From Escherichia coli (GTDB taxonomy: Bacteria; Pseudomonadota; Gammaproteobacteria; Enterobacterales; Enterobacteriaceae): a DNA stretch of 64,000 nucleotides. Where the stretch lies: the NCBI RefSeq assembly GCF_041248615.1, contig NZ_CP158426.1, one strand, 5' to 3'. The translations under genes and the position numbers were made by a program. The notes beneath the pieces were generated by a model. That model did no database searches and was not told the origin of the DNA. It worked only from the letters and a program-made list of their open reading frames with translations. Below, one piece after another: positions 11,442 to 43,562 of this stretch. Position 1 is the stretch's first letter; the number at the start of each line of letters is the position of its first letter.

Positions 11442-12029
11442 TTACTTTTGGAAGGCTTTTTTTAAGCTGATTTTGGAAATCAGCTCTGTCAGTGAAAGGA
11501 CCATTGTTGATCGCACAGCCTGTTGGTAACGCTGAATTTGCATTGCATACAAACTGGAGTCTGCAGGTTCAAACTGTGGCGGCGGTGGTAACGCCGCCAC
11601 GCAATGCAGTTCACCAAAGGGTCCAAGGATTTCGTCGTCGGTAAACGCGTACTCGTTGCCGTCGTGATTTAGCTCTTCACGCAATGCCATCAGCAGTTCC
11701 GCATCTTCGTATTCCTGGCGGTTAATGACACCCAACCCGTAAATGAGTTTTAAACGCACAGAAAGATCGCCCAGCGGACCGTCGCCGTCGAGTAACGGTT
11801 CTACAGCATACTTCACCGCGTAATCGTCTTTGCGGAATACCTGAAGCACCAGAAGATTTACCGCCTCGGTCAAAAGCTCGACGGCGGTGATCAGAAAGCT
11901 TCGCACGGTTTTGCCAGCATTCAGACGCTCAAGCACACGGTTTTCAAAGGCCTGGGTTTGTTCCATTGTTGCCTGCATATCTGACAATCTGTTATTCGGG
12001 CGCAGGGTATCCTGCGCCTGGTCCACCAT
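11442..12029 (-). CDS. mtlR: mannitol operon repressor
   Basis: 195-aa ORF directly downstream of mtlD; its start shares one base with the mtlD stop. Confidence 0.92.
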   Translation of the reverse strand: MVDQAQDTLRPNNRLSDMQATMEQTQAFENRVLERLNAGKTVRSFLITAVELLTEAVNLLVLQVFRKDDYAVKYAVEPLLDGDGPLGDLSVRLKLIYGLGVINRQEYEDAELLMALREELNHDGNEYAFTDDEILGPFGELHCVAALPPPPQFEPADSSLYAMQIQRYQQAVRSTMVLSLTELISKISLKKAFQK

Positions 12030-13177
12030 TATTGCATTGCTTTATAAGCGGTTACTGCCTCGGATACAACCTCGCTGTTGGCATCAAGACCGGAAATCTG
12101 TGCCAGCGCGGCTTGTGGGCCTTTGTCGGCAATCAGCGCTGCCAGTTCCTGAGCCTGCGGATCATCTTCACTGCGGAAGTGCATTGCAGCGGCAATACCT
12201 TCAATCAGGTTTTTATGTGGCAGACCATATTCCAGCGTTCCGAGCAGTGGCTTGATCAGACGGTCGCCAGCACTCAGTTTACGCAGCGGCTGACGGCCTA
12301 CGCGCTCTACATCATCTTTCAGATACGGGTTCTCGAAACGACCGAGGATTTTCTGGATGTACGCCGCATGTTTGTCCGCGTCAAAGCCGTAGCGCTTGAT
12401 CAGTACCGCACCGCTTTCTTCCATCGCACCTTTTACCACCGCGCGGATTTTCTCGTCGAGAATCGCATCACGAATGGTCTGATGACCGGCCAGTTTTCCG
12501 AGGTACGCGGTTATAGCATGACCCGTGTTCAGGGTGAAGAGTTTACGTTCGACAAATGCCATTAGGTTGTCGGTTAACTCCATGCCTGGGATGTTCGGCA
12601 GCGCGCCTTTGAACTGCGTTTTATCAACAATCCATTCGCTGAATGTTTCTACCGTCACTTCCAGCGGATCGTTGGTTGCAGAAGCCGAAGGCGGCACGAT
12701 GCGGTCAACGGCGGAATCGACAAAGCCAACGTGTTCTTCTACCCACGCTTTGGCATCTTCCGGCAGGGCGTTCATCACATGGCCTTTCAGCTGCGTGGTG
12801 CCGCGTACCATGTTTTCACAAGCGATGATGTTCAGCGGGGATTCATTACCTTGTTCTTTACGTTTCACCAGCCCTTTGGCGATAGCCGGAGCAATACGTT
12901 CCAGCACAACCGGGCCAACGGCGGTAGTGACTAAATCGACCTGAGCAATCAGATCAACGACATCATCACCAATGCTGCTGACAGCATTGACGCCGGAAAC
13001 GGTATCTACCTGCTCGGTTTCACCGACCACATGAACCTGATAGCTATGACGGGCATTCAGGGCATCAAGTACCACCTGATTGACATCGGCAAACGTCAGT
13101 TGGATACCCGCGTCTGCCAGCAGTTTACCGATAAAGCCACGACCGATATTACCTGCGCCAAAATGTAATGCTTTCAT
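12029..13177 (-). CDS. mtlD: mannitol-1-phosphate 5-dehydrogenase
   Basis: ORF 12029..13360; start placed at the ATG giving [17 protein letters not shown]... (382 aa, Rossmann GxGxxG). Confidence 0.95.
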
Positions 13178-13271: not shown

Positions 13272-15185
13272 TTACTTACGACCTGCCAGCAGTTCCAGCA
13301 CTTCATCCACGCTGGTGGTGTGTGCCAGACGTTCGATGACGGACTCATCATCCAGTGCATTGGTCAGGCTGGTGATAACCTGAATGTGCTCGTTGTTACG
13401 GGCAGCAATACCAATTACCAGACGGGCAATGTCATCTTCTTCTTCACCGAAGCGCACGCCTTCCGGGTACTGGCAGAACACCACGCCCGTTTTCAGTACG
13501 CGATCTTTCGCTTCAACCGTACCGTGCGGCACCGCGATAGACTCACCCAGATAAGTCGGGGTCAGTTTTTCACGATCCAGCATCGCCTGAACGTATTCTG
13601 GCTCAACGTAACCGCCTTTCACCAGCTGCTCGCCAGCAAAACGAATCGCTTCTTCTTTGGTGGCCGCTTTGCGACCGAGGAAGATGTTCTCCGCGCCTAG
13701 CTTGAACAGGTTAGCACTGGAATCGTCAAAGCTGTCTTTCAGACTGTCTTTCACTTTCACTTCGTTTTCAGTATGGCGCTGAGCAGCAACCAGACGTTCG
13801 GTCAGGCTGGTGTACAGGCCGCTGTCGAGGAAGTTGGTCAGCGAAATATGCTGTGCCTGCGGAACCTGGCGCATAGCGCGTTCGGTCAGGTCACGGTGAG
13901 TGATGACCAGGTCCACATCTGGCGGCAGGTTGTTGATCGCGCTGTTAGTAACAGAAATCTGCGACAGACCTGCATCCTGAATTTTCTTACGCAGCACACC
14001 TGCGCCCATCGCACTGGAACCCATACCGGCATCACAGGCAACGATGATTTTACGTACGTGGCTCAGGTCGTTAGTCACATCGCCTGCAGACAGCGGAGAC
14101 GCACCTTTAGACTCAGCTTTCATGTCCTGCATACGACGAGTTGCTGCTTCAATATCATCTTCTTCTTTCACTTTGCTGGTTTTCAGCAGAATGGCAGAGA
14201 CAACGAAGGAGACAGCCATCGCCGCACACACACCCGCGATGTTAGCGAAGTATGCACCTTTTGGTGTCATCGCCAGTACAGCAAGGATAGAGCCCGGAGA
14301 TGCCGGAGAAACCAGACCACCGCCCAGGATAGTCAGCGTGAACACGCCAGTCATACCACCGAGGATAACGGCCAGAATCAGACGCGGATTCATCAGCACA
14401 TACGGGAAGTAGATTTCGTGGATACCGCCCAGGAAGTGGATGATTGCCGCACCGCCCGCAGACTGTTTAGCGCTACCACGACCAAAGAACATGTACGCCA
14501 GCAGCACGCCCATACCCGGACCTGGGTTAGCTTCAATCAGGAAGAAGATGGATTTACCCAGTTCATGGGACTGCTGAATGCCCAGCGGCGAGAAGATACC
14601 GTGGTTAATGGCGTTGTTGAGGAACAGGATTTTCGCCGGTTCAACAAAGATAGACGCCAGCGGCAGCATGTCATGGACAACCATGAAGTTAACGCCCGCA
14701 GCCAGCATTTTGGACAGGGCTTCAACAATCGGGCCAATGCCGAGGAATGCCAGAATAGCGAGGATCATCCCGATGATGCCTGCGGAGAAGTTATTCACCA
14801 GCATCTCAAAACCGGATTTGATCTTACCGTCTACCCAGCGGTCGAAGTGCTTAATGCACCAGCCGCCCAGCGGACCTGCAATCATAGAACCGAGGAACAT
14901 CGGCATGTCTGCGCCGACGATAACGCCCATGGTGGTAATGGCACCGACTACGCCGCCACGTTCGCCGCCTACCAGCTTACCACCGGTATAACCGATCAGC
15001 AGCGGCAGGAGATAAGTGATCATCGGCCCGACCAGCTTCGCCAGCGTTTCGTTCGGTAACCACCCTGTTGGAATAAATAACGCGGTGATGATACCCCACG
15101 CGATAAACGCGCCGATATTTGGCATCACCATGTTGCTGAGGAAACGACCAAAGCTTTGCACTTTGATCTTAATATCGGATGACAT
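13272..15185 (-). CDS. mtlA: PTS mannitol-specific EIICBA component
   Basis: 637-aa [30 protein letters not shown]...; EIIC membrane domain with C-terminal EIIB/EIIA. Confidence 0.96.
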
Positions 15186-15328
15186 AAAAACACCCCTTCT
15201 TATGTTTGCTGTCGCGCAGGCTGGAAGCCCGAGGTTTTTTGTTAATGTGGCGGCAGAGGTAGCCGGACCTTGTAGATACTGCGAAATCTGGCACTGAATC
15301 GGTTAACTGTCCAGTCGACGGCCTTTTG

Positions 15329-15505
15329 TGTGATATCAGTCACATAAATATAGGGGGTAGAGAGGTAATTGACGTGATGCTCATCACAAAACTCTTGTGT
15401 AAAAAAGCAACAAGGCGGCGATTTTCGCTAAAAATGGCATTTAAATGTGAGTGATGTCACATTTTTGTTTTGATGGTTTGTTGAATTTTTGTGATCTGAA
15501 TCACA
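15329..15505. promoter_or_regulatory. mtl operon promoter region with an array of CRP-type sites (TGTGA-N6-TCACA)
   Basis: Three perfect sites: tgtgatatcagtcaca (15329-15344), tgtgagtgatgtcaca (15446-15461), tgtgatctgaatcaca (15490-15505); one near-perfect, cgtgatgctcatcaca (15373-15388). All upstream of mtlA on the minus strand. Confidence 0.6.
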
Positions 15506-15721
15506 AGATATTTTCTTACGGCGTTCACCTGATGTGATCTACAGCATGTTATGCCTTCGTCATGAAATCGTTATGTAACTAAGCAACTCATCACCTCTTA
15601 AAATTATTCTTTGGTGTTATGGCGAGAATCGCGAACCCGGATTATTGTCAAAATATCAGCCTGACTCCCTTCTGGCTGCCAGCCAAAAAACAACACCGAT
15701 AAACGTGAATCCGAGGCAGAT

Positions 15722-16084
15722 ATGTTTCTAAACTATTTCGCGTTGGGAGTGCTGATCTTCGTCTTTCTGGTGATTTTTTATGGAATCATCGCGATACATG
15801 ACATCCCTTATCTGATTGCCAAAAAGCGCAACCATCCCCATGCCGACGCTATTCATACGGCGGGCTGGGTGAGCCTGTTTACTCTACATGTTATCTGGCC
15901 GTTCCTGTGGATCTGGGCGACGCTCTATCAACCGGAGCGCGGCTGGGGCATGCAGTCACATGTTGCGTCGCAAGAGAAAGCGACTGACCCGGAAATCGCC
16001 GCACTTTCTGACCGAATTTCCCGGCTGGAGCATCAACTCGCCGCCGAGAAAAAGACTGACTATTCCACGTTCCCGGAGATCTAA
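15722..16084 (+). CDS. yibI: small inner-membrane protein YibI
   Basis: 120-aa ORF with N-terminal TM segment; 2 bp before yibH. Confidence 0.82.
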
Positions 16085-17680: not shown

Positions 17681-18202
17681 TTATTCATCGATGCATTTTA
17701 TAGAATCATCAATGGCTACAATAGTACTATTAACTCTCCAATTTATATTTTTATTATCATTGCAAATATTAACTGAATCTATATCAATGATTTTTTTATT
17801 TTTATCTTTTATTTTGTTTACAGTTTCAATGCAATCAGCGACAAGTTGGTGTGGATTTAGATTCTTCAGATATGGTCTTATGATCTTTCCCTTGCTTAAT
17901 AAATAGCATGTATAGGATTCGGAAAGTCCAGCATCTATTTTGTACATCATTATTCTAGATAAGGATGTGAGAAATGCCTTGTTATCATTAGCAGCCATAT
18001 ATGCCAGTCCGAGTTCAGCCTCTGCGGCTTTACATGAAAAATAGCTAAGTGAACACGCTTTTCGTCCCTCTTGGGTACTGGCTGATATTAGTGCCCATAA
18101 TATTGCCTTGTCTGCCAAATCCAACTCTCTCTGAAATTGGTTTACAGTAACTGCATTCGCAGAAATAGAGAAGAAAAGCACAATTGTTAATAACCTTGTC
18201 AT
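17681..18202 (-). CDS. secreted hypothetical protein (Sec signal peptide); candidate periplasmic immunity protein of an orphan toxin module
   Basis: 173-aa ORF MTRLLTIVLFFSISANA|VTV...; AT-rich coding sequence; sits 4 bp downstream of the LDT-like ORF on the same strand. Confidence 0.45.
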   Translation of the reverse strand: MTRLLTIVLFFSISANAVTVNQFQRELDLADKAILWALISASTQEGRKACSLSYFSCKAAEAELGLAYMAANDNKAFLTSLSRIMMYKIDAGLSESYTCYLLSKGKIIRPYLKNLNPHQLVADCIETVNKIKDKNKKIIDIDSVNICNDNKNINWRVNSTIVAIDDSIKCIDE

Positions 18203-19038: not shown

Positions 19039-21140
19039 TTAATATTTCATTCTTGCTGGCAAGCCCAACTCTTTACGAAATGGGTTTTCATATTTATCAA
19101 CATTAGCCATCGAGTCAGTTCCATCGTCTTTCATTCCCTTTGCATGCCCCATTTCATGCGCAAGAACCACACTCAACAGAGTGGGTTTCATGGCACATGC
19201 TTTGTTTTTTCCTTGATATACACATGAGCTATGGTCGTTATCAATATCAATGTAAAAACTATATTCAGTATCATCGTAGCATGTTTGGTTTATGCCTTTT
19301 CTTAATCCTCTAAATATATATTCATGCTCTGATGACTCTAATTCTTCTGTTATTTTATGTCCAAACTTTGTTTCTGCTACAGCTTTATATGCTTCTTTTA
19401 AAGTTTTTTGTGTACTTTCATCTCCCTGAAAAGACACTTTTAACCCTAATGGATCGAAACCAGATACCGGATTCAACGGATACTGATAAAAATTCCATCC
19501 CCCCTTAAGCCCAATCGGATCCTGAGTGATATACCGCCCCTGCAGCGGGTCATAATAGCGGTGGCGGTTGTAATAGAGGCCGGACTCCTCATCATACTGC
19601 TGACCCGGCAGGCGGATGAGCTGCTGCAGCTGGTGCGGGTTCTCTTCATTCAGCAGGTTGCCCCATTCATCGTATTCTGCGCACCATTCTGTTGCCCCTT
19701 CCGTGCTGACAAGCGCCAGCGGCAGGCCGCGATGGTCGCAGTGGTACAGGTGGATTTTTCGCGCCGGCGTGTACACCGGGTCCATCTGGTTTTGTATCTG
19801 CTCCACCGTCAGGCCGCACGATGCCAGCCAGCGGCGGCTTTCCTCACTCACCCGGTCAGCCAGGATTTCACTTTCCAGCCGGTCGAGCATCTGCACCAGC
19901 ACCGGCGGGAACACCACACTGCCACCGTCTTCACCGCCGGACTGCTGAAGCGCATCCGCCAGGCTGCGGCGCTGCGTTTTCGCCAGCTCACCGGTGGCAG
20001 TTTCAACTCTGATGAGTGGCGTGAAGCTCCCCGGCTGATAAACCGTCTGGATGCGGGTTCTGTCGTTCTGTATTGTGGTCAGCCGGTCGCCGTCCCAGCC
20101 GTACCAGGTCACTTCCGGTTTCCGTGACAGCGACATCCAGCCCGTCAGGTCCCGTTCACGCCGCCACACCCGTTTTGCCACCCTGCGGCCCAGCGGGTCG
20201 TAAAGATAGCGACTTTCGACCAGCGGCTCTGCATATTGTGTCCGCGTGTAGTGCACCAGCCGGTGCCGGCTGTCGTAATGGTACCGGTGAGTCCGCTCAT
20301 CATCCGTGCGGATAACCCCTTCCGGGATGAGGTCGGTTTTCTCCGTCAGCCTGCCGTGACGGTCATACCGGTAAAGATAGTGCGCGTCACGGGCGATACG
20401 GTTATCCGGCCACATGCTGAGGGTGCTGTCCGGGTGCAGCTCCGGGTCGGGCAGGCGGTTACCTGCCGGGTCCGTGGCATACGGGATGCGGATATCCAGA
20501 TTCGCTGCGGTGGTGTGGACGCCGGTCAGCCTGCCGGTGTCGCTGTAGCTGTAACTCCGGGTCTGGCGCGGGCTGCTGATGCGGATGAGTTCGCCGTTGT
20601 CGTTCCAGGTGTAATCGCGGTCATACTGCAGGCTGTTCAGGTGCTGGCTCTGTAACTGCCCGGCAGAGGTGTAAGCGGTGGTGAGTTCATAACGGCCGAA
20701 GCTGCGCAGCGTTTCCCGGTGCAGGCGGTCGCGGGTGTACTCCACCAGCGGTGTGTCGCCGAGTTTCATGCCTGACAGCCAGCCGCTGCCGTAGGTCAGC
20801 CATTCCACGGCGGGCAGGCTGTCCGGTATACAGCGGTTCGCCAGTCCCTGCGCGTTGTACGCATGTCTGGTTTCATGCTGCCAGAGCAGTGCTTCCGTCT
20901 GCGGGTGATGCACCGTCTGGCGCTCACCGGTCAGGCGGCCTTTCTCATCATACCCGTAATGCACCGTCACCCGGTGGCCTTCGCTGAGATGGCTGATTTG
21001 TGTCAGCCAGCCGCGTTCGTCGTACCGCCACTGTTCTGCGGTTTCACCATTCACCGTTCGCTGTGTGATGCGGTCTGCTTCGTCATAGTGCCAGTGGGTG
21101 ACCAGCCCCTCATCCTCGCTGCGGTGCGTATTACCGTGAA
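19039..21140 (-). pseudogene. rhs C-terminal segment: YD-repeat core end (…DPIGL…DPLGL) plus HExxH metallopeptidase-like toxin tip; separated from the rest of rhs by an IS21-family insertion
   Basis: ORF 19039..21159; Rhs YD repeats; core-end motif [39 protein letters not shown], then ~130-aa AT-rich tail containing [12 protein letters not shown]. Confidence 0.8.
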
Positions 21141-21209
21141 GGAGATCGGTGAGTAACATCGATGGAGATCGGTTCGTGTCACTTTCACAGAACCGTTTTT
21201 AAATTACCT

Positions 21210-21959
21210 TCACTGATCTCCTTCGGTCAACGGAGATTGTATTTTCCGCATTGATTCTCCTTTAAGTTCGATCTTGATACTGCCATGAACCAGTCGATCT
21301 AGGATGGCATCCGCATGTGTGGAGTCTCCGATCATTTTGTACCAGTTTTCCACCGGCAACTGGCTCACTACGATGATTGAGCCTCGTTGGTACATCAGAT
21401 CCACTATTTCCAGCAGGTCGCTACGCTGTTCTGATGAGAGAGGTTCCAGCCCCCAGTCATCCAGAAGCAGCAGATCGCTATTATTCAGCCTGGTCAAAAG
21501 TTTGCTGTATCTTCCATCAGCATGCCCCTGATAGCACTGTTCCATCAGCGCTTTAAGGCGATAATAGTAGACCTTGTATCCCTGTCGGCAGGCATTATGA
21601 CCAAGTGCACATGCCAGGAACGTTTTACCGCTGCCGGTGGCCCCGGTCAGTAAAATATTTTGTTTCAGGGTTAACCAGTTTCCCTGACTGAGTGAACGGA
21701 TGAGGGCCCTGTCCAGCCCTCTATTGTTACGATAATCCAGCTTTGATAACTCAGCATTAAGTCTGAACCGTGCATGTTTGATCAGACGCTCTGCCTTCCT
21801 GTTTTCACGGCAGGTTAGTTCTTCTGCTGTCAGTAATGACAGGCGTTCTTCGAAGCCCAGCTCCTGGTATGTGCCCGGCTGAGCAAGTTGCTTTTTAAGC
21901 GCATCACGGAAGCCGGTGAGTTTAAGTGCGGTCAGTTGTTCGTAAAGATGATTCATCAT
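21210..21959 (-). CDS. istB: IS21-family helper ATPase IstB
   Basis: 249-aa ORF with Walker A GATGSGKT and DnaC-like AAA+ fold signature. Confidence 0.9.
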   Translation of the reverse strand: MMNHLYEQLTALKLTGFRDALKKQLAQPGTYQELGFEERLSLLTAEELTCRENRKAERLIKHARFRLNAELSKLDYRNNRGLDRALIRSLSQGNWLTLKQNILLTGATGSGKTFLACALGHNACRQGYKVYYYRLKALMEQCYQGHADGRYSKLLTRLNNSDLLLLDDWGLEPLSSEQRSDLLEIVDLMYQRGSIIVVSQLPVENWYKMIGDSTHADAILDRLVHGSIKIELKGESMRKIQSPLTEGDQ

Positions 21960-21970
21960 TGGATCCCGTA

Positions 21971-23512
21971 TCAGTGGTAATACTCACTGCCGCGTACGTT
22001 TTCGTGTTCCATCGTGGATAACAGATCTGGTTTTGGATCCTGAACAGGTTGTTTATCCAGACCTTTTTCCAGGATCGATTTAATACCTGACAGACGCCAT
22101 ACCTTTGTTTTCAGAGCTCTTGCACATGCTGCATTAAGTCTGGCTTTACTGTATTTTTTATGAAGGTTCAGGAGTCCAAGGCAGAAGCGATAGCTTTGTT
22201 CCGGATGTGGACGAGAGTTCAGTATATGAAGCACATAACTATGAGTTTCACTGCCTATGTGCCCCGCCCATTCCAGAAGACGCTCTGGCGTCCAGGTGGC
22301 ATGCTGTCGATGAGCTTCAGGCATGTGCTCGTTGCGGGTACTGTAGCCATAAGTACGCTTGCGCGGGTGCACAGCAACCTCCTGCCCCTGATTGAAGAGT
22401 CTTACCAGTTCTCCGGAGATCCATGCTTCCAGTTGCTGGCCTAACAGCGAACATGGAACCGAGTAGTAATGTTTGTCGATTTCCACGTGGTAATCGGCAT
22501 GAACTCTGACTTTCTTCACCAGGGTGTAACTGTAACTGGCTTCAGGAAGAGGCTTCAGTGCGGGTTTATCAAGCTGGATGAAGAGTTCTGCACGTGAATA
22601 ACCCAACTTCTGCATTATTTTGTTATTCAGTCTTTCCAGCAACTCCCGAATGCGCTGATTAAGCGATGCAAGGCTGTAGAAGATCTCATGCCTGATTCGG
22701 GCCATGATCCAGCGTTCAACAACCTGAACGCCAACTTCAGCTTTGGCTTTATCTTTCGGTTTACGTGGCCGCGCAGGCAAAACTGCGACATTATAATGCT
22801 CAAGCATCTGCTGGTAGGTAGGGTTAACGTCAGGATCATACTTACATGCCCTGGATGTGGCGCTTTTCAGATTGTCCGGAACAACAAGTTCAGGAACGCC
22901 ACCCAACCACTGGAAGCAGCGAACATGACTCATCACCCAGTCTTCAAGCTGCTGAGACCAGGTGGCCTCTGCCCATGTGTAACTTGATGCCCCGAGAACA
23001 GCTACGATGACCTGAGCAGTTCTTATTTCTCCGGTCTCAGGGTCGGTAACGCCAACGGTAGGTCCACAGTAATCAACGAAAAGTTTTTCGCCAGCTTTAT
23101 GTACCTGACGCATTGATGGTGAAGTGGTTTTGAGCCATTCACGGTACATCCGGCAGTAATGGTTATAGCTGTAAAAACCGCCTGGATTACGCTCACAGTA
23201 TTCTTCCCAGAGTAGCTGCAGCGTCACGCATTTATTACGCAGTTCCCGGTGTACTGTAGCCCAGTCAGGCAGAGAGTGCTTCTTCATCTTAACCTGGGTC
23301 TGAAGGAACGCATGTTTTAGTTTTGTATCATCCCATCCTGTAGGTAAGGGCCACTGCTTTATGCCAAGTTGAGCCGCCCGATTAGCATATCTGGATACAA
23401 CGGAAGGGGAGATTGCAAGACTACGACCAATTTGTCGATGGCTGAGTCCAACACCGTATTTAAGCCTAAGAATTTCTTTAAGTTTTCTCATAGAAATTGG
23501 AACTGTTGGCAT
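21971..23512 (-). CDS. istA: IS21-family transposase IstA
   Basis: 513-aa ORF with N-terminal HTH and integrase-type DDE core; immediately upstream of istB. Confidence 0.9.
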   Translation of the reverse strand: MPTVPISMRKLKEILRLKYGVGLSHRQIGRSLAISPSVVSRYANRAAQLGIKQWPLPTGWDDTKLKHAFLQTQVKMKKHSLPDWATVHRELRNKCVTLQLLWEEYCERNPGGFYSYNHYCRMYREWLKTTSPSMRQVHKAGEKLFVDYCGPTVGVTDPETGEIRTAQVIVAVLGASSYTWAEATWSQQLEDWVMSHVRCFQWLGGVPELVVPDNLKSATSRACKYDPDVNPTYQQMLEHYNVAVLPARPRKPKDKAKAEVGVQVVERWIMARIRHEIFYSLASLNQRIRELLERLNNKIMQKLGYSRAELFIQLDKPALKPLPEASYSYTLVKKVRVHADYHVEIDKHYYSVPCSLLGQQLEAWISGELVRLFNQGQEVAVHPRKRTYGYSTRNEHMPEAHRQHATWTPERLLEWAGHIGSETHSYVLHILNSRPHPEQSYRFCLGLLNLHKKYSKARLNAACARALKTKVWRLSGIKSILEKGLDKQPVQDPKPDLLSTMEHENVRGSEYYH

Positions 23513-23693
23513 AGGTATCCTTTACCGGAATGGCAAAAGATACAGATCAACACACCTGTGAAGTTCCAATAACATTGATGGAGATCACTGAATAACAAAA
23601 TGAGTCAAAAGTGATCTCCATCGATGTTATTCAGCGATCTGTTCAAATGTTATTACCCGATCTCGATGGAAGTTATTGAGTGATCTCCTTTCA

Positions 23694-24723
23694 TGAAAAT
23701 ACGCACTGCGGATAAGTTTACCGGTCAGGTCGTGGTGATAACGCTGTGTGCGGCCGTCAAAGCCGGTTTCCTGTATCAGCCGGTCGAGTACATCGTAACG
23801 GAAGGTGGTGTGGCTGCCGTTTTCACTGGTCAGGCGGATGACCCGTCCGGCAGCATCGTATTCCATACTGCGCGTCAGACCGCCCTGTGTGGTACGGATG
23901 GCCTTTCCCCACGCATCGTACTGTGTCCCGTTTCTGCTGCCGTCCGGGGCAATGACGGCGGTCAGGTCACCGGCGGCGTTGTATTCATACCGCGTTTCAT
24001 GGCCCTGCGTGTCTTTCACCGCAATTAACTGTCCACGGCTGTCGTATGCGCGGTACTGACTCAGCCCTTCCTCGCGGTGCACCGCCGTCACCTGACCAAA
24101 ACGGTCATGGTCATAACGGGTTACATAACCGGAACAGTCAGTGACGGTCAGCAACTGACCGTAACGGCTCCATGTCATGGTTTTCCGGCTGCCGGTGGCA
24201 TCTTCCGTTGCGCAGGGTAAGTCACTGTGTGGATTATCATAACGGTAGCGGGTGATATCGCCGTTGTGTGCGGTTTCCTGAATCAGACGGCCGGATTCAT
24301 CATATTCCCGGCGCAATTCCAGCCCGTCAGGCCCGGTGGCTGACGTTAACTGGCTGTGGTGGTTATAGTAAAATGCCGATGCCCTGCCATCCGGTGTGGT
24401 GATGCGCGTGATGAGTCCCGTCACCACATCCGGGCTGTACTCAGTCGTCCGGCCTGCGGCATCCGTCTGTGCCTTAAGCCTGCCCACCGCGTCAAACTGA
24501 CTCTGCGTGACGCTGCCGTCCGCGTGTTCCTTTTTCACCACCCGCTTCAGCCCGCCTTCGCCCTGCGTGTGCAGCACTTCACGGCGGTCCAGGCTGTCGG
24601 TGATGGTGATGTGGTCTTTCTCATACTGATACGTGTAGCTTAAGCCTGCCGGGTTTAGCTGTTCTGTCACCCGCCCGTCACTGTCGTAACGGTAACGGAT
24701 TTCCGGCCGGCCCGTGTGACGGT
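23694..24723 (-). pseudogene. rhs middle segment (YD-repeat region) lying between the two IS insertions
   Basis: ORF 23627..24670 with repeated YD/RYxYD motifs (…RYRYDNPH…YVTRYDHDRFGQ…YEYNAAGDL…); frame continues upstream to the IS3-family boundary. Confidence 0.8.
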
Positions 24724-25478
<755 letters not shown>

Positions 25479-25582
25479 ATCAGCATACTTGTCCTTAGCC
25501 TTCTGCAGTGACAGCTGGTAGTACAGCGTGCTTCTGGCCAGCCCTGCAGCCTTTAACAGGTCAGACTGGCAGTGTCCGCACC

Positions 25583-26113
25583 TCAGGCTCCGGATGACTT
25601 TCGTTTTTTCTCCAGCTCCTGGCGCTTTTTTTCCAGGAGATGCTCCTGCATGGCTTTCAGATATGCATTTTCTGCGCGAAGATAACGCAGCTCATTCTTC
25701 ATCTCTTCCGGCGTCATGTTTGCCTCGTTTTCATGGGTATCATCAGAACGGGTCATGCTTTTCTCCTTCCTGCGCCTGATAAAGGCCTCATTACCAGATT
25801 TGCGGTAGCCTTTTATCCAGTTTTTAACCGTGTTGTGGCTGGGAATGTTAAACCGGGCAGCTACCCGGGGTAGAGACTCAGAATGCCCGAGAGCATAAAG
25901 AACCACGCAAAGTTTATCTTCAGGAGAATAGCTACGCTTGTGTCTGCAATCCAGTGCCCGAGGACCGTGAAGAAGAAAAAGATTAATCCAGTGTGAGAGG
26001 CTGGTGTGAGAAAGTTGAAAGAGTTTTGCCGTAGAAATGATGCCTGTATGACCAGCCAGGTAATGATTTACAGCGGCAAGTTTTACTTCAAATGAATGTT
26101 TCATAAACTGCAC
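25583..26113 (-). CDS. IS3-family transposase OrfA (HTH)
   Basis: 176-aa ORF with HTH region and leucine-zipper-like C-terminus; contains A-AAA-AAG slippery heptamer near its 3' end. Confidence 0.85.
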   Translation of the reverse strand: MQFMKHSFEVKLAAVNHYLAGHTGIISTAKLFQLSHTSLSHWINLFLLHGPRALDCRHKRSYSPEDKLCVVLYALGHSESLPRVAARFNIPSHNTVKNWIKGYRKSGNEAFIRRRKEKSMTRSDDTHENEANMTPEEMKNELRYLRAENAYLKAMQEHLLEKKRQELEKKRKSSGA

Positions 26114-26155
26114 CTTCAGATGTCAGATTATGTCCAACATTTGGGGTGCAGTTCA

Positions 26156-27203
26156 GGTGCGCCACCATCCGGCCCCGGTATTTATCATCGTAAGTAAAGC
26201 TGCGCACCTGTGTATTGCTGCGGTCATACACCGCCGCCAGTTCGCCGCGTGGCGTCCAGCCATAGCGCACCAGCGGCGCGGCAGGTAAATTCTCCGGGTA
26301 TTCCGGGTCGTGCGTCAGCCACACGGCAGACAGACGGATGCCGTTGTCCCGGCCATATTCGGTGTAACCCGGCAGGGTATCAGGAAAAACGGACGGTTCC
26401 ATCCCGCCGGAAATGGCCTGCTGCCGGGCTTCTTCTGCCCGCTGCGCCTGCGTGGTCAGTACCAGCCGGAAGTGACGCCCGGCACCATCCGTCACGCCGG
26501 TGATTTCGCCGCTGAATTCGCCGCCAGCCTCACGGTGGAACGTCTGTGTGCGCCCGAAGCGGTCCACCAGCCCGGTCAGTACCCGGTACGGCGGCAGCGG
26601 CGCAGGCAGCACCTCATCCGCCTCCGGCACCCGCTCACACCAGCCGAGTACCCACCACGGCCCCTGCGGACTGTTCGTCGCCAGATAACGATGCGGACTC
26701 AGGCGAAGCTCTTCCGGCAGCGCCTGCCAGAGTGCGGCCAGCCGGTGACCTTCATCCAGTTTCGCCACGCCGCCGCGCACCAGCCAGAGTGACTCGCTGC
26801 GGCTGTAACCGTCCTCACCGGGAAACAGGTGCTCAAAATACAGGCTTCTGCCGCCGTTATCACTGAGTATCAGTGTGTTATCGCGCAGCTGTAAGCGGAT
26901 ATCCGCAGGCATTTTCCAGCCGGGGCCGAGGCTCCCCACCGGCGCGGGCGTTTTTGTCCGGTAACTGCTGTAGGTGCGGGAGAGGATGAACGGCAGCGGG
27001 CCGGGCAGGGCAAGGTCGGTTTCGCCGGGAAGGACCTTCGCGCCGAGCAGCGGATTGACCGGATGGCCGGACGTCACCCCGCCGGGGCACACCGAACAGG
27101 CCACGCCGGTGGGGGCACCGATGCGCACCCCGGCTGAACCCTGGACAATGCTACCGCCATACTGCGTCATGTCGCCCTGACGCGCCGCCGGTTTTCCGCT
27201 CAT
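26156..27203 (-). pseudogene. rhsA: rhs N-terminal segment (PAAR-like N-terminus), truncated by the IS3-family insertion
   Basis: Starts MSGKPAARQGDMTQYGGSIVQGSAGVRIGAPTGVACSVCPGG..., the conserved Rhs N-terminus; divergent from yibF as recalled for rhsA; reading frame runs into the IS. Confidence 0.82.
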
Positions 27204-29529: not shown

Positions 29530-31370
29530 TTATTGCGACTGCCGGACACGTTGACCACGGCAAAACAACCTTATTGCAGGCGATTACTGGCGTAAATGCC
29601 GATCGTCTGCCGGAAGAAAAAAAGCGCGGCATGACTATCGATCTCGGTTATGCCTACTGGCCGCAGCCGGATGGCCGCGTGCCTGGTTTTATCGACGTAC
29701 CCGGTCATGAAAAGTTTCTTTCCAACATGCTGGCTGGCGTTGGTGGTATCGATCACGCGCTGTTGGTGGTGGCGTGCGATGACGGCGTGATGGCACAGAC
29801 CCGTGAGCATCTGGCGATTTTGCAGCTGACCGGTAACCCGATGCTGACAGTGGCGCTGACCAAAGCCGATCGCGTGGACGAAGCGCGTGTTAATGAGGTT
29901 GAACGCCAGGTAAAGGAGGTGCTGCGGGAATACGGTTTTGCTGAGGCAAAACTGTTTATCACCGCAGCAACCGAAGGTCGGGGAATTGATGCCCTGCGCG
30001 AGCATCTGCTTCAGTTACCAGAACGCGAACACGCCAGCCAACATAGTTTCCGCCTCGCGATCGACCGTGCATTTACCGTAAAAGGTGCCGGGCTGGTCGT
30101 CACCGGTACGGCGTTAAGCGGGGAAGTGAAGGTAGGCGATTCACTCTGGCTGACTGGTGTAAATAAACCGATGCGCGTGCGTGCGCTGCATGCACAAAAC
30201 CAGCCAACAGAAACCGCCCATGCCGGGCAGCGTATCGCGCTTAACATCGCGGGTGATGCGGAAAAAGAGCAGATTAACCGTGGCGACTGGCTGCTTGCCG
30301 ATGTGCCGCCAGAGCCGTTCACGCGGGTGATTGTCGAGCTTCAAACCCATACGCCGCTGACCCAGTGGCAGCCGCTGCATATTCACCACGCCGCCAGCCA
30401 CGTTACGGGACGCGTTTCGCTGCTGGAAGATAGCCTTGCCGAGCTGGTGTTCGACACGCCGCTGTGGCTGGCGGATAACGATCGCTTAGTGTTGCGCGAT
30501 ATCTCGGCCCGCAACACGCTGGCGGGGGCGCGTGTGGTAATGCTTAACCCGCCGCGTCGCGGTAAGCGTAAGCCGGAATATCTGCAATGGCTGGCGTCTC
30601 TTGCACGAGCGCAGAGCGATGCCGATGCGTTATCTGTTCATCTGGAACGCGGCGCGGTTAACCTTGCCGATTTCGCCTGGGCACGGCAGCTCAACGGCGA
30701 AGGGATGCGCGAACTATTGCAACAGCCTGGCTATATTCAGGCTGGTTATAGCTTGTTGAATGCGCCGGTTGCCGCCCGCTGGCAGCGGAAAATTCTCGAC
30801 ACATTAGCGACTTATCATGAGCAACATCGCGATGAACCTGGTCCTGGGCGCGAACGTCTGCGACGTATGGCGTTGCCAATGGAAGATGAAGCGCTGGTAC
30901 TGTTGCTGATTGAAAAGATGCGCGAAAGCGGCGACATCCTCAGTCATCACGGCTGGCTGCATCTGCCGGATCACAAAGCAGGCTTCAGCGAAGAGCAGCA
31001 GGCCATCTGGCAAAAAGCAGAGCCGCTGTTTGGTGACGAACCGTGGTGGGTGCGAGACCTGGCAAAAGAGACGGGAACCGACGAGCAGGCAATGCGTCTG
31101 ACGCTACGTCAGGCGGCGCAGCAGGGGATAATTACCGCGATCGTTAAAGATCGTTATTACCGTAACGATCGGATTGTCGAGTTTGCCAATATGATCCGCG
31201 ATCTCGATCAGGAATGTGGTTCAACCTGCGCGGCGGATTTCCGCGATCGCTTAGGCGTAGGCCGAAAACTGGCAATTCAAATTCTGGAATATTTTGACCG
31301 CATTGGTTTTACGCGTCGTCGGGGAAATGATCATTTACTGCGCGACGCATTATTATTTCCGGAAAAATAA
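29526..31370 (+). CDS. selB: selenocysteine-specific translation elongation factor
   Basis: 614-aa ORF; GTPase G1 motif [12 protein letters not shown]-terminal winged-helix extension. Confidence 0.96.
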
Positions 31371-31560
31371 GGAAATGATTAATTCATAATAAATATGAAT
31401 TAATACAAAATTTCTTATTAATGTTAAGAAGGCACGTTATTTGATGAATGTAACGTGCTTTTTATTAAAAATATTTTAATAAACGGTAATGTTGATCATA
31501 TTTTCAAATGAAAATCCTCAGTAAGCTGCCCGCCCTTTTTTACACTTTCAGGAGTGTGTT

Positions 31561-32712
31561 ATGGCAGCTTCAACCTTTTTTATTCCTTCCGTGAATGTTA
31601 TTGGTGCTGATTCATTGAATGATGCAATGAATATGATGGCAGATTATGGATTTACCCGTACCTTAATTGTCACTGACAATATGTTAACGAAATTAGGTAT
31701 GGCGGGTGATGTGCAAAAAGCACTGGAAGAACGCAATATTTTTAGCGTTATTTATGATGGCACCCAACCTAACCCCACCACGGAAAACGTCGCTGCAGGT
31801 TTGAAATTACTTAAAGAAAATAATTGCGATAGCGTGATTTCCTTAGGCGGTGGTTCTCCACACGACTGCGCAAAAGGTATTGCGCTGGTGGCAGCCAATG
31901 GTGGCGATATTCGCGATTACGAAGGCGTTGACCGCTCTGCAAAACCGCAGCTGCCGATGATCGCCATCAATACCACGGCGGGTACGGCCTCTGAAATGAC
32001 CCGTTTCTGCATCATCACTGACGAAGCGCGTCATATCAAAATGGCGATTGTTGATAAACATGTAACTCCGTTGCTTTCTGTCAATGACTCCTCGCTGATG
32101 ATCGGTATGCCGAAGTCACTGACCGCCGCAACGGGTATGGATGCCTTAACACACGCTATCGAAGCGTATGTTTCTATCGCTGCAACGCCGATCACTGACG
32201 CTTGCGCACTGAAAGCGGTGACCATGATTGCCGAAAACCTGCCGTTAGCCGTTGAAGATGGCAGCAATGCTAAAGCGCGTGAAGCAATGGCTTATGCCCA
32301 GTTCCTCGCCGGTATGGCGTTCAATAATGCTTCTCTGGGTTATGTTCATGCGATGGCGCACCAGCTGGGCGGTTTCTACAACCTGCCACACGGTGTATGT
32401 AATGCCGTTCTGCTGCCACACGTTCAGGTGTTCAACAGCAAAGTCGCTGCTGCGCGTCTGCGTGACTGTGCTGCTGCCATGGGCGTTAACGTGACAGGCA
32501 AAAATGACGCGGAAGGCGCAGAAGCGTGCATCAATGCCATCCGTGAACTGGCGAAGAAAGTGAATATCCCGGCAGGCCTGCGTGACCTGAACGTGAAAGA
32601 AGAAGATATTCCAGTGCTGGCAACCAATGCCCTGAAAGATGCCTGCGGCTTTACTAACCCGATCCAGGCAACTCACGAAGAAATTATGGCGATTTATCGC
32701 GCGGCGATGTAA
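31561..32712 (+). CDS. yiaY: iron-containing (group III) alcohol dehydrogenase
   Basis: 383-aa ORF with Fe-ADH motifs (GGGSPHD…, …HAMAHQLGG…). Confidence 0.93.
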
Positions 32713-32913
32713 TCATCATTCCCCCAATGGCTGGCTAATTGTCAGCCATTTTTTTCAACTATCTCAAAATTTGCGATTTTTGAGAGAGTTTTAGTTATCT
32801 CTGTAATCCTTGCCCGTAAATTCGTGATAGCCGTCGTAAAGCTGTTACCGACTGGCGAAGATTTCGCCAGTCACGTCTACCCTTGTTATACCTCACACCG
32901 CAAGGAGACGATC

Positions 32914-34452
32914 ATGACCAATAATCCCCCTTCAGCACAGATTAAGCCCGGCGAGTATGGTTTCCCCCTCAAGTTAAAAGCCCGCTACGACAACTTTATC
33001 GGCGGCGAGTGGGTAGCCCCTGCCGATGGTGAGTATTACCAGAACCTGACGCCGGTGACCGGGCAGCTGCTGTGCGAAGTGGCGTCTTCGGGCAAACGAG
33101 ACATCGATCTGGCGCTGGATGCTGCGCACAAAGTGAAAGATAAATGGGCGCATACTTCGGTGCAGGATCGCGCGGCGATTCTGTTTAAGATCGCCGATCG
33201 GATGGAGCAGAACCTCGAACTGTTAGCGACCGCTGAAACCTGGGATAACGGCAAACCCATTCGCGAAACCAGTGCTGCCGATGTGCCGCTGGCGATTGAC
33301 CATTTCCGCTATTTCGCCTCGTGTATTCGGGCGCAGGAAGGCGGTATTAGTGAAGTGGATAGCGAAACCGTGGCTTATCACTTCCACGAACCGTTAGGCG
33401 TGGTGGGGCAGATTATTCCGTGGAACTTCCCGCTGCTGATGGCGAGCTGGAAAATGGCCCCCGCGCTGGCGGCGGGCAACTGTGTGGTGCTGAAACCCGC
33501 ACGTCTTACCCCGCTTTCTGTACTGCTGCTAATGGAAATCGTCGGTGATTTACTGCCGCCAGGCGTGGTGAACGTGGTCAACGGTGCAGGTGGGGAAATT
33601 GGCGAATATCTGGCGACCTCGAAACGCATCGCTAAAGTGGCGTTTACCGGCTCAACGGAAGTGGGCCAACAAATTATGCAATACGCCACGCAAAATATTA
33701 TTCCGGTAACCCTGGAGCTGGGCGGCAAATCGCCAAATATCTTCTTTGCTGATGTGATGGATGAAGAAGATGCCTTTTTCGATAAAGCGCTGGAAGGCTT
33801 TGCACTGTTTGCCTTTAACCAGGGCGAAGTTTGCACCTGTCCAAGCCGTGCTTTAGTGCAGGAGTCTATCTACGAACGCTTCATGGAACGCGCCATCCGC
33901 CGTGTTGAAAGTATTCGTAGCGGTAACCCGCTCGACAGCGTGACGCAAATGGGCGCGCAGGTTTCTCACGGGCAACTGGAAACCATCCTCAACTACATTG
34001 ATATTGGTAAAAAAGAGGGCGCAGACGTGCTCACCGGCGGGCGGCGCAAGCTGCTGGAAGGAGAACTGAAAGACGGCTACTACCTCGAACCGACGATTCT
34101 GTTTGGTCAGAATAATATGCGCGTGTTCCAGGAGGAGATTTTTGGCCCGGTGCTGGCGGTGACCACCTTCAAAACGATGGAAGAAGCGCTGGAGCTGGCG
34201 AACGACACGCAATATGGCCTGGGCGCGGGTGTCTGGAGCCGCAACGGTAATCTGGCCTATAAGATGGGGCGCGGCATTCAGGCCGGGCGCGTGTGGACCA
34301 ACTGTTATCACGCTTACCCGGCACATGCGGCGTTTGGCGGCTACAAACAATCAGGTATCGGCCGTGAAACTCACAAGATGATGCTGGAGCATTACCAGCA
34401 AACCAAGTGCCTGCTGGTGAGCTACTCGGATAAACCGTTGGGGCTGTTCTGA
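32914..34452 (+). CDS. aldB: aldehyde dehydrogenase B
   Basis: ORF 32824..34452; start at ATG 32914 ([17 protein letters not shown]…, 512 aa) preceded by AAGGAG; ALDH motifs ELGGKSP and catalytic Cys region EVCTCPSR. Confidence 0.95.
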
Positions 34453-34729
34453 TATAAGAAGCTGGTCGCATTGGGTATTCATTGCCTGATGCGACGTTTG
34501 CGCGTTTTACCAATTCAAATGTCTACGTCTTGAATGACTGAATATTGATTGAACTTAATTACGAGCATCCTCGCATCTTTTCAACAAGTTACTGCACACC
34601 GTTATTCTCCTTCCGAGCGGCATTCCTGAGTCAACTTTATCCCCCTGACGGCCCATATAAATCGCGCTATCGTGATTGTTATCGCTAATTGTGTGTGTAT
34701 CGTGTGTATAATCATGGAAGGGCAGGGAT

Positions 34730-34915
34730 GTGAAAAGTGCAGACGTGATCGCCATCCTGAAGCAGCATGGCTGGGAACATATTCGAACCCGTGGCAGTCA
34801 TCATCAGTTCCGCCACCCTGTTCATCCGGGTCTGGTGACGGTTCCGCACCCTAAAAAAGATATTAAGCCCGGTACGCTGGCGCAAATTGGGCGTCAGGCT
34901 GGTTTAACATTTTAA
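34730..34915 (+). CDS. hicA: HicA-family mRNA interferase toxin
   Basis: 61-aa ORF (GTG start) MKSADVIAILKQHGWEHIRTRGSHHQFRHP...; HicA/YcfA-like GSHH motif; followed 16 bp later by a HicB-like gene. Confidence 0.7.
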   Translation: MKSADVIAILKQHGWEHIRTRGSHHQFRHPVHPGLVTVPHPKKDIKPGTLAQIGRQAGLTF

Positions 34916-34931
34916 AATTTCAGGAGGCAAT

Positions 34932-35342
34932 ATGTTTTATCCCGCCTATATCCACAGTGATCCTGACGGCAGTGCCAGCGGTTTTTTCCCTGATGTTCCA
35001 GGCTGTTATTTTGCTGGTGATACGCTGGACTACGCTTTCCAGGATGCGCGAAGTGCACTGGTCGCGCACTTCGAAACCTTATGCGAGATGAATGAAGAGT
35101 TGCCGCTTCCAGGCTCTGTGGAAACACATCTGGTCCAGCGTGCGCAGGACTTTATTGGCGGGCAATGGTTGCTGGTGGATATCAATATGAATCAGTTCGA
35201 AGGTCGGGCTGAACGTATCAATATTACGATGCCAAAAAGATTACTGAACAAGATTGATACCTACGTGCGCAATAACCCAGACTATGCCAACAGAAGTGCG
35301 TTTCTGGCGGAAGCTGCCCGGCGTGTATTGCCGGGCGTTTAA
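34932..35342 (+). CDS. hicB: HicB-family antitoxin with C-terminal ribbon-helix-helix DNA-binding domain
   Basis: 136-aa ORF with strong RBS AGGAGG; N-terminal HicB signature …GFFPDVPGCYFAGDT…; C-terminal RHH-like …NITMPKRLLNKID…. Confidence 0.75.
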   Translation: MFYPAYIHSDPDGSASGFFPDVPGCYFAGDTLDYAFQDARSALVAHFETLCEMNEELPLPGSVETHLVQRAQDFIGGQWLLVDINMNQFEGRAERINITMPKRLLNKIDTYVRNNPDYANRSAFLAEAARRVLPGV

Positions 35343-35413
35343 TCTCGCGTTTCGATGGTTGGCGGGCAACCGCACCGATATGTTGATACTGATAAGACGC
35401 GTTAAGCGTCGCA

Positions 35414-37378
35414 TCATGCGCTGGTTTCCTCATTCACCCAGATCCGCATTTCGCCTTCACCCCGGTTGGCCCAGCTAAACCACGGGATAAAGGTCAGGGT
35501 TTGCGGCTGGCGTTTGGCTGGCGCGCTGTCGTAATGCCACAGCGGTTGCTGCTCTGGATTACTTTGTTCATACCGGTAACCCGGTGCCTGGATTAAGATC
35601 TTATGGCTGAACAATCCCTTGCCTTCAAAGGTCGTAAATGGCGCATCGGCGGGCAGCCACAGGTTATGTAGTGACTCGCCGTTGTCGGCCTGTTCCAGGC
35701 AATACACCAGCGGGCCGCGCTGAATCGCCACTTTTCCGGCGACGTGACGCACCAGCGGGTTACCGTAAACGCGGCGTACCGGCATCGGCAAAGTCAGATT
35801 CAGCGTATCGCCCTCCTGCCATTCGCGGGTAATGTGCAAATACCCTTTACGAATATCCTGCCCGACCTCTTCCCCATTCAATATGATCTGCGGCTGTGTG
35901 CACCAGTCCGGCAGACGTAAAGCCAGCGTATGACGCACCGGCTGGGGCGATTCAACCGCAATCGTCACCTGCTCCTGCCACGGATAGTTTCCGCTAACCC
36001 GCAGACGCAGCATGCCATTTTCTACCGGCACTTCCATGCTGTTTCCTGCGTAGATGTTGATATACAACGCATCTTCACGCGGCGTGTAGAGATAATGACC
36101 AATCGAGGTTAGCACGCGGGCGATATTTGGCGGACAACAAGCGCAACCAAACCAACGCTGGCGGATCGGCTTAACGTGATCGTAGATATGGTTGAATTTT
36201 AACGTTTTTGGATGCACTTCCAGCGGATTAACGTAGAAGAAATGTTTGCCATCCAGCGCCATGCCGCCGAGCACGGTGTTGTACAGTGCGCGCTCCATCA
36301 CATCGGCATATTGACTGTCGCCTTCCATTTCCAGCATTCGCCGGGCGAACATCATCAGGCCGATGGAAGCACAGCTTTCGGCGTATACCGTGTCATTCGG
36401 CAGATCGTAATCGCTGCTGAACGCTTCGCCGCTGCTTTGTGAGCCAATGCCGCCGGTAATATATAACTGACGCTGGGCCATATTGTTCCACAGCCGCAGG
36501 CAGTCCTGACGCTTGCTTTCATCGTGACTTAAACGCGCGAGATGCGCGACGGCGGTCATCAGGTAGACAAAACGTACCGCGTGACCAATGGCGGTTTGCT
36601 GCTGTGCGATGGGCAAATGCGCCTGGCTGTAGGCTTTGTCTTTCACCATCCACGCCGGGCCGTAGGTGTGCCAGTGCGAGGTCTGCCCGCGCTTTTCATA
36701 TTCCTGGTCGTAATAGTGCGGTTGCGCACCACGCTGTTCGACAAAATAGTTCGTCAGCGCCAGGTAGCGCGGCTCTTCGGTCACTTCATACAGGCGCATT
36801 AGTGCCAGTTCAATTTCCGGGTGACCAGGATAACCGTGTAACTTACTTTCACCTGGACCAAATACGCTGTCGATATGATCGGCCAGACGGCAAACCACTT
36901 CCAGCAAGCGCCGTTTTCCCGTGGCCTGGAAGAAGGCGACTCCGGCTTCAATCAGATGACCGGCGCAGTAAAGTTCATGACACTCCGCCAGATTGCTCCA
37001 GCGTTCTTCGGGCGCTTTTACCGTAAAGTAAGTATTGAGATAGCCGTCTTCGCACTGGGCGGAAGCGACCAGTTCGATTACCTCGTCGGCGGTTTTTTCC
37101 AGTTCGGCGTCCGGCTTCTGGCACAGCGACCAGGCTACCGCTTCCAGCCATTTGGCGACGTCGCTGTCCTGAAACACCATCCCGTAAAATTCACCCTCCT
37201 GAAGTCCGGCGGCAATGCGAAAGTTTTCAATCGCATGGCTGGGTTCCGCTTCTGGGATACGATCGTTCAAGGCATCCCACTGATAAGGAATCACCACGTC
37301 GCGGACCAGTTGTTGGTACTGACCGAGGAACGGATCGCTGACCGTCAGTTTATGCAGATCGACTTCCGAAATGTTCAT
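35414..37378 (-). CDS. glycoside hydrolase family 127 protein (DUF1680; beta-L-arabinofuranosidase-like)
   Basis: ORF 35414..37426; start placed at the ATG preceded by AAGGAG (MNISEVDLHKL…, 654 aa); contains WFGCACCPPN and YAESCASIG, matching the Cys-rich zinc/catalytic site I recall for HypBA1-type GH127. Confidence 0.8.
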   Translation of the reverse strand: MNISEVDLHKLTVSDPFLGQYQQLVRDVVIPYQWDALNDRIPEAEPSHAIENFRIAAGLQEGEFYGMVFQDSDVAKWLEAVAWSLCQKPDAELEKTADEVIELVASAQCEDGYLNTYFTVKAPEERWSNLAECHELYCAGHLIEAGVAFFQATGKRRLLEVVCRLADHIDSVFGPGESKLHGYPGHPEIELALMRLYEVTEEPRYLALTNYFVEQRGAQPHYYDQEYEKRGQTSHWHTYGPAWMVKDKAYSQAHLPIAQQQTAIGHAVRFVYLMTAVAHLARLSHDESKRQDCLRLWNNMAQRQLYITGGIGSQSSGEAFSSDYDLPNDTVYAESCASIGLMMFARRMLEMEGDSQYADVMERALYNTVLGGMALDGKHFFYVNPLEVHPKTLKFNHIYDHVKPIRQRWFGCACCPPNIARVLTSIGHYLYTPREDALYINIYAGNSMEVPVENGMLRLRVSGNYPWQEQVTIAVESPQPVRHTLALRLPDWCTQPQIILNGEEVGQDIRKGYLHITREWQEGDTLNLTLPMPVRRVYGNPLVRHVAGKVAIQRGPLVYCLEQADNGESLHNLWLPADAPFTTFEGKGLFSHKILIQAPGYRYEQSNPEQQPLWHYDSAPAKRQPQTLTFIPWFSWANRGEGEMRIWVNEETSA

Positions 37379-37388
37379 CTTGTGCTCC

Positions 37389-38789: not shown

Positions 38790-39014
38790 AGATGTTCCTC
38801 GTGAATAGGGTGCAATTTTTAGTTTTATTGCAATGACATGATTAATTCTGCCGTGAACGGGAATATCAACAAGGCGAGAAAAGAGTAAAAAAAGGTGACG
38901 ATTCCGACCTGAATTTAAAAGTGTGAATTGGATCAGGTGAAATTAATGTTTTTGATTAATAATCAAAAGGTAATGTGTTTAATCATTAATGAATAAGCGG
39001 GAAATTACATATTA

Positions 39015-39830: not shown

Positions 39831-39831
39831 T

Positions 39832-39853: not shown

Positions 39854-39861
39854 GTGAGGGA

Positions 39862-43559: not shown

Positions 43560-43562
43560 GGT

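Follow-up and report, generated by a model that had tools for sequence, protein, structure and literature searches.

What is the purpose of the dense array of CRP-type palindromes that lies upstream of mtlA? In the window, by which we mean the whole 64 kb stretch of Escherichia coli DNA that was analysed, mtlA encodes the mannitol PTS enzyme IICBA on the minus strand (13272..15185) and is followed on that side by mtlD (12029-13177) and by mtlR (11442-12029, minus strand, 195 aa). The divergent yibI-yibH genes start at 15722 on the plus strand, and the array is located in the intergenic spacer between mtlA and yibI. A preliminary description had listed three perfect and one near-perfect TGTGA-N6-TCACA core within about 180 bp upstream of mtlA, each readable in the letters, and had taken them as part of a catabolite-controlled promoter. 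Sequence reading and a pattern search bore this out, since all four sites were found at definite coordinates, their span of 15329-15505 is the 177 bp claimed, and they lie upstream of mtlA because this gene is on the minus strand. The inventory of sites was nevertheless short by one, a weak fifth site at 15533-15548 having been overlooked. The catabolite control reading holds as far as it goes; it is incomplete in that, for the E. coli mtlADR operon as a whole, the array is almost certainly operator and promoter in one, combining activation by CRP with docking of the repressor MtlR.

The five sites, which we number CRP5 to CRP1 with increasing distance from mtlA, were observed directly in the sequence, and were scored with a symmetrised CRP matrix derived from 16 classical sites outside mtl; the matrix is approximate, and so are all values given here in bits. 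CRP5 (15329..15344; 22-mer 15326-15347) has the perfect core TGTGATATCAGTCACA and scores 15.7 bits, the second highest value in the window. Its centre at 15336.5 corresponds to -58.5 from the mtlA transcription start, which makes it the promoter-proximal site in a class-I-like position. CRP4 (15373..15388; 22-mer 15370-15391), with the core CGTGATGCTCATCACA, matches 9/10 positions (CGTGA...TCACA) and scores 12.8 bits (rank 8); it is centred at 15380.5 (-102.5), 44 bp from CRP5. CRP3 (15446..15461; 22-mer 15443-15464, AAATGTGA...TCACATTT) contains the perfect core TGTGAGTGATGTCACA and is the best match of all (19.9 bits, rank 1), its centre at 15453.5 (-175.5) being 73 bp from that of CRP4. A further 44 bp away, CRP2 (15490..15505; 22-mer 15487-15508) carries the perfect core TGTGATCTGAATCACA, is centred at 15497.5 (-219.5) and scores 13.3 bits (rank 6). 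The overlooked site, CRP1 (15533..15548; 22-mer 15530-15551), reads TGTGATCTACAGCATG on the plus strand, matches the core at 7/10 positions and is weak (10.4 bits, rank 20); its centre, 15540.5 (-262.5), is 43 bp from CRP2 and outside the span described earlier. The centre-to-centre series from CRP5 to CRP1 is therefore 44, 73, 44 and 43 bp, and the four sites listed at the outset are 144-320 bp 5' of the mtlA ATG.

All five have a TGTGA-N6-TCACA core (10/10 in three, then 9/10 and 7/10) with an above-background score, and the significance of the cluster was observed by several measures. Perfect cores occur three times in the 64 kb window, all of them in this cluster, against 0.10 expected by chance, and none of 100 dinucleotide shuffles reached three. 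With up to one mismatch allowed, the window contains five matches, of which four lie inside the 177 bp; a Poisson model gives a probability of 5e-11 for four or more matches in a stretch of that size, or ~2e-8 when corrected for 361 windows. The weight-matrix scan that the preliminary description had proposed as a check came out in its favour, the four listed sites scoring 12.8-19.9 bits with the approximate matrix and ranking 1, 2, 6 and 8 of 63,979 positions, with the fifth at rank 20. With the same approximate matrix, eight positions in the window score at least 12.8 bits against 1.45 expected, and in 100 first-order Markov replicates hits of that strength numbered at most two in any 230-bp stretch.

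Other strong matrix matches were seen at 59544-59565, 48064-48085, 53165-53186 and 53282-53303, positions that lie between xylF and xylA, between yiaK and yiaJ, or between malS and bax. The genes xylA/xylF, yiaK and malS are CRP-regulated, and it is probable that these matches correspond to CRP sites already known at those promoters. That the other top matches of the matrix fall in these three intergenic regions makes the matrix credible.

We then located the promoter on which these sites would act, using the published site positions together with cross-species conservation rather than a promoter scan. If CRP5 is centred at -58.5, as published for K-12 (PMC13421365), mtlA transcription starts at about 15278 on the minus strand (+/-2 nt), which implies a 5'UTR of ~93 nt. 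A -35 hexamer TGGACA, read from the sequence at 15308..15313 (minus strand), falls exactly at -35 to -30 of this start and is kept in 12/13 aligned sequences, the exception being Brenneria. It is separated by a 17-bp spacer from an extended -10 element, TG-C-CAGATT (15285..15293, minus strand), of which the hexamer CAGATT matches 3/6 bases. The promoter block GTGCCAGATT is conserved across genera, and since the -35 and -10 blocks are both among the best-conserved columns of the alignment, the promoter assignment is supported independently of the published positions. Five CRP sites above a weak sigma-70 promoter place the region among class III CRP-dependent promoters, which have at least two. 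A simple sigma-70 scan of 15100-15800 on the mtlA strand gave no other promoter-like site; in a simple promoter and terminator scan of the same interval, which missed the weak mtlA promoter, counts were not above those in shuffled sequence.

Two further features touch the promoter and its leader. Within the -35/-10 spacer, the plus-strand stretch 15293..15306 is a full match to the consensus for Cra (FruR), RSTGAAWCSNTHHW; matches to this consensus number four in the window against 0.45 expected. As a candidate Cra site, it would fit the repression of mtl by Cra that is cited in PMC13421365. The mtlA 5'UTR (15186-15278, minus strand) is highly conserved across genera, and a conserved ACCUC block in it could pair with the Shine-Dalgarno region, at its GGGGU. 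Consensus folding gave a weak structure (-8 kcal/mol, with a covariation term of -0.25 and one pair showing a compensatory change), so that the pairing is no more than a hint of translational control, and we do not claim the 5'UTR as an RNA element. Scans of the whole window against Rfam at gathering thresholds and for tRNAs gave no matches, and so no RNA element of these kinds accounts for the region.

To what extent does the array correspond to the operator known from E. coli K-12? The 536-bp intergenic region was aligned with that of K-12 MG1655 and differs from it by 12 substitutions and no indels. Five of these substitutions are within the 16-bp cores, all in the central N6 of CRP3, CRP4 and CRP5, leaving the pentamers untouched; a sixth is close to the CRP2 core but not in it, and the others are in spacers or on the yibI-proximal side. 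In K-12, CRP5 to CRP1 are positioned at -58.5, -102.5, -175.5, -219.5 and -262.5 (Lee et al. 2026, NAR 54:gkag751, PMC13421365), and the distances of 44, 73, 44 and 43 bp that we observed 5' of mtlA are equal to the published ones. Since the spacings agree, we identify the sites in the window with the known CRP sites of the mtl promoter. The K-12 mtlADR operator is thus the same locus with the same site positions and pentamers, and the 12 substitutions in the window do not predict a functional difference. The array itself is already known: five mtl CRP sites were reported earlier by Ramseier & Saier (1995, Microbiology 141:1901), as cited in PMC5320558, the mechanism was described in 2026, and the architecture here is as in K-12.

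What is said here of CRP binding, of docking by MtlR and of the need for individual sites comes from this literature on K-12, and its validity for the present strain is inferred from its near-identity to K-12. CRP is essential for mtl expression, and binding to the CRP sites was reported in EMSA on the K-12 sequence, which is identical to the window in pentamers and spacing (PMC13421365). Chromosomal replacement of CRP2, CRP4 or CRP5 led to no mtl expression and no growth on mannitol, while CRP3 was contributory and CRP1 both dispensable and poorly occupied (PMC13421365). MtlR is without a DNA-binding domain and supershifts CRP-DNA only if a distance of 43-46 bp, and best of all 44-45 bp, separates two bound CRP dimers; the 73-bp CRP3-CRP4 pair recruits MtlR only once the gap is cut to 44 bp, and changing the malK CRP spacing from 34 to 44 bp creates MtlR binding (PMC13421365). 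[quoted passage not shown] Dephosphorylated EII-Mtl keeps MtlR sequestered at the membrane, by which it causes induction, and dephospho-HPr competes for the same MtlR surface (PMC13421365). In an earlier study from the same laboratory, an MtlR-CRP interaction went undetected when DNA was not present (PMC5320558). The mechanism by which far-upstream sites activate remotely was left open (PMC13421365).

The spacing in the window agrees with these requirements, in that three adjacent pairs fall in the range of 43-46 bp (CRP4-CRP5 and CRP2-CRP3 at 44 bp, CRP1-CRP2 at 43 bp). The CRP4-CRP5 pair is one MtlR docking platform and CRP2-CRP3 is the second. The MtlR encoded in the window retains R167 and L178, the residues that contact CRP, and in this respect is the cognate repressor. 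As a protein without a DNA-binding domain, MtlR would therefore have to dock on the CRP-DNA complex. The following sequence of events can be proposed for this strain by analogy with K-12. At high cAMP, CRP dimers would fill CRP2 to CRP5 and turn transcription on from the weak extended -10 promoter TGGACA-17-CAGATT below the five sites, with CRP5 activating from its class-I-like position and the upstream sites playing an architectural part. The 44-bp pairs CRP4-CRP5 and CRP2-CRP3 would set the CRP dimers in a geometry that an MtlR dimer can bridge, and without mannitol, MtlR seated on the CRP-DNA complex would block contact between CRP and RNA polymerase. On addition of mannitol, dephosphorylated EII-Mtl would capture MtlR at the membrane and so bring about induction, and competition by dephospho-HPr for the MtlR surface would give glucose its priority over mannitol.

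In order to assess the conservation of this architecture, genomes were scanned for two perfect cores separated by 18-48 bp, i.e. with centres 34-64 bp apart. The scan yielded at least 120 loci, which are a sample selected for perfect cores and not a census. A 44-bp pair was present in 14 loci among the matches listed, and in 13 of these it lay directly 5' of an mtlA homologue, as identified by tblastn with the MtlA of the window; among the 106 listed loci with no 44-bp pair, none adjoined mtlA (Fisher p = 1.6e-16). The 13 mtlA loci among the matches listed comprise ten of Enterobacteriaceae type together with a Brenneria, an Orbaceae and an Actinobacillus, one of the ten being a MAG labelled only Proteobacteria whose MtlA is 94% identical. 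The fourteenth 44-bp locus among those listed belongs to a Bacteroidetes MAG and is presumably a chance match. Among the sampled genomes, a pair of perfect cores with a spacing of exactly 44 bp thus comes close to being a hallmark of mtlA.

The CRP matrix was then run over 480 bp upstream of each of these mtlA genes. The 44-73-44 series was kept in 10/10 other Enterobacteriaceae loci, with CRP1 at 43 bp in 6/10; spacings were 44-74-44 in Brenneria, 44 in the Orbaceae and 40-44 in Actinobacillus. Selection of the loci had relied on a single perfect pair, which makes the other 44-bp pair, the 73-bp gap and the 43-bp position of CRP1 independent evidence. Sites and spacing are thus conserved in orthologous mtlA upstream regions, and the cross-genus alignment shows constant pentamers and spacer lengths, with diverging N6 and spacer sequences. 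To what was described in 1995 and 2026, our analysis adds that the 44-bp spacing is mtlA-specific in the genome sample and that the 44-73-44 ruler is invariant across the sampled Enterobacteriaceae. For genome annotation, the value of this is small, as the regulatory region is of textbook level. The more general lesson is that the spacing of sites for a global regulator can be an address, read by a repressor that is unable to bind DNA.

Other spacings were also recovered by the scan. In Superficieibacter (L020, 3736-3808), two perfect CRP cores form a pair with a centre-to-centre distance of 57 bp between divergent genes for an MFS transporter and a KduD-like SDR dehydrogenase, and a spacing of 57-58 bp is common to five other Enterobacterales loci (L010, L029, L039, L090 and L102). 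The 46-bp class, found at three loci of a Tannerella MAG (L070, L071 and L072), consists of tandem arrays with a 23-bp period containing TGTGA...TCACA, and is a repeat family unrelated to CRP.

Could the array act, wholly or in part, on the divergent yibI-yibH genes, instead of mtlA or besides it? The position of the array in a divergent intergenic region lends itself to this reading, as does the distance of 181 bp between the centre of CRP1 and the yibI ATG at 15722. However, the array spacings are kept in Enterobacter, Klebsiella, Pluralibacter and Superficieibacter loci in which kilobases of upstream flank contain no yibI homologue, and among these loci yibI neighbours the array only in L037 and L099, from which we conclude that the array is linked to mtlA rather than to yibI. 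The sites are moreover placed relative to the conserved mtlA -35 and -10 elements with no indels, and mutation of the sites abolishes mtl expression (PMC13421365). Conservation in loci that have no yibI argues against a yibI-directed array, and we rejected this explanation as unlikely; a part in yibI-yibH control, for which there is no need, keeps a small probability for the distal sites.

Within E. coli, the array was found in 5404/5426 complete genomes, and its length was unchanged in a sample spread across the ranking. In strain GPEC1054 (L127, about 2753-2984), an IS21-family element (istA/istB) has inserted between CRP2 and CRP1, at ~15521 in terms of the window, and detaches CRP1 and yibI from the mtl promoter. 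This insertion fits the dispensability of CRP1.

A second alternative, which takes the reading of the preliminary description to be the whole story, is that the array is a device for catabolite activation alone, in which multiple sites produce strong cAMP dependence and there is no operator role. This would account for CRP being essential to mtl expression (PMC13421365) and for the strength of the sites as CRP matches, and tandem CRP sites are known at other class III promoters (PMC13421365). It does not account for the EMSA supershifts or for the spacing and MtlR interface mutants, which show docking on pairs 43-46 bp apart, nor for the loss of the MtlR-dependent effect in vitro when the spacing alone was changed and the sites were left intact (PMC13421365). 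Additive activation would also not require a 44-bp spacing that is kept across genera and is mtlA-specific in the sample. We consider a purely activating array quite improbable, somewhat more so than one directed at yibI.

The logic of the mtl operator has a counterpart in the CytR-CRP promoters deoP2, cdd, tsx and udp, where a repressor likewise cancels CRP activation through two CRP dimers on tandem sites. It may therefore be asked whether the array is a CytR-type anti-activation module, in which, as at deoP2, tandem CRP sites flank a DNA-binding repressor. The idea draws its appeal from this common logic of a repressor that contacts two DNA-bound CRP dimers, but CytR has its own DNA-binding domain and an operator between the CRP sites, whereas MtlR has neither. 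The CRP-site spacing at CytR-regulated promoters is ~52-53 bp and differs from the 43-46 bp geometry that alone is read by MtlR; in the present array, the value is 44 bp. From genus to genus, most of the sequence between the members of the 44-bp pairs differs, save for a short CCCCCTATATT block in the CRP4-CRP5 spacer, and since these sequences are mostly not conserved, there would be no operator for a DNA-binding protein between the paired sites. With neither a conserved operator nor a ~52-53 bp spacing in the array, we discarded the CytR-type module as highly improbable. The probability of a chance cluster, or of copies of a repeated or mobile element, is negligible: short palindromes do arise by chance, as the 44-bp pair of the Bacteroidetes MAG (L092) shows, and the 23-bp tandem repeats of the Tannerella MAG yield the bare pattern, but the copies here have the pentamers alone in common and not the flanks or N6, and both readings are excluded by the statistics (three perfect cores against 0.10 expected in 64 kb, cluster probability ~2e-8) and by conservation of the sites across genera at fixed positions.

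Comparison with two other systems helps to define what is particular to the mtlADR operator as a platform for both CRP and MtlR. The malEp-malKp region resembles it in that three or four CRP sites are arrayed between divergent genes and form a higher-order nucleoprotein complex. Its malK sites are 34 bp apart, however, and MtlR stays unbound unless they are stretched to 44 bp; this array works with MalT. In the Mlc/EIICB-Glc system, as in mtl, induction follows from capture of the repressor at the membrane by a PTS permease in its dephosphorylated form. The likeness to mtl is in the protein side of the circuit and not in the DNA array, and Mlc binds DNA directly.

Some conserved features go beyond what the docking of MtlR on a single pair needs. 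All the sampled Enterobacteriaceae have exactly 73 bp (~7 helical turns) from CRP3 to CRP4, and the position of CRP1 is retained in most genera though the site is dispensable in K-12. In the CRP3-CRP4 gap, ~10 bp distal to CRP4, we observed the minus-strand sequence TTTTTTACAC (T6-ACAC) at 15397-15406; this block is kept in 11/13 aligned sequences while the remainder of the gap diverges. For the T6-ACAC block, which is not accounted for by MtlR docking, an A-tract bend or a site of the Fis type comes into question. Since the 73-bp gap, the TTTTTTACAC block and the CRP1 position are all unneeded for single-pair docking, we tentatively raise the possibility, to which we give a minor share of our belief, that the array acts as one phased unit and not as two independent MtlR platforms. 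If this were true, the two CRP pairs would keep a fixed register, perhaps with help from a further factor such as Fis or from an intrinsic bend, and would so form the wrapped or looped nucleoprotein structure that remote activation needs. A separate conserved element, minus-strand CCCCCTATATT at 15347-15357 between CRP4 and CRP5, is kept in most Enterobacteriaceae and is surrounded by diverging spacer sequence.

Several observations were made elsewhere in the window. Over the stretches searched, it is 100% identical to positions 192001-256000 of NZ_LT599825.1 (E. coli isolate NRZ14408). By BLAST, the window is collinear with strain W13-16 to about 21 kb and not beyond. Between lldP and yibL, 4968-9287 on the minus strand is taken up by a large gene whose product is YadA-like (a trimeric autotransporter) and by a DUF3251 gene next to it; the W13-16 version is longer and aligns with a break, and the repeat content is therefore variable. 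Beside yibF, at 19039-27203, there is an Rhs element that two insertions, ISEc12 of the IS21 family (21210-23512) and IS1397 of the IS3 family (24756-26104), have split into three pseudogene pieces. The Imm57 immunity gene of this Rhs element (17681-18202) is intact. Further along, between aldB and the sgb/yia genes, a cluster at 34730-39830 contains the hicA/hicB toxin-antitoxin genes followed by genes for a GH127 glycoside hydrolase, an MFS transporter and an AraC regulator. At least 80% of the interval 31300-44900 is covered in only 1879/5426 complete E. coli genomes, and part of this interval is therefore accessory.
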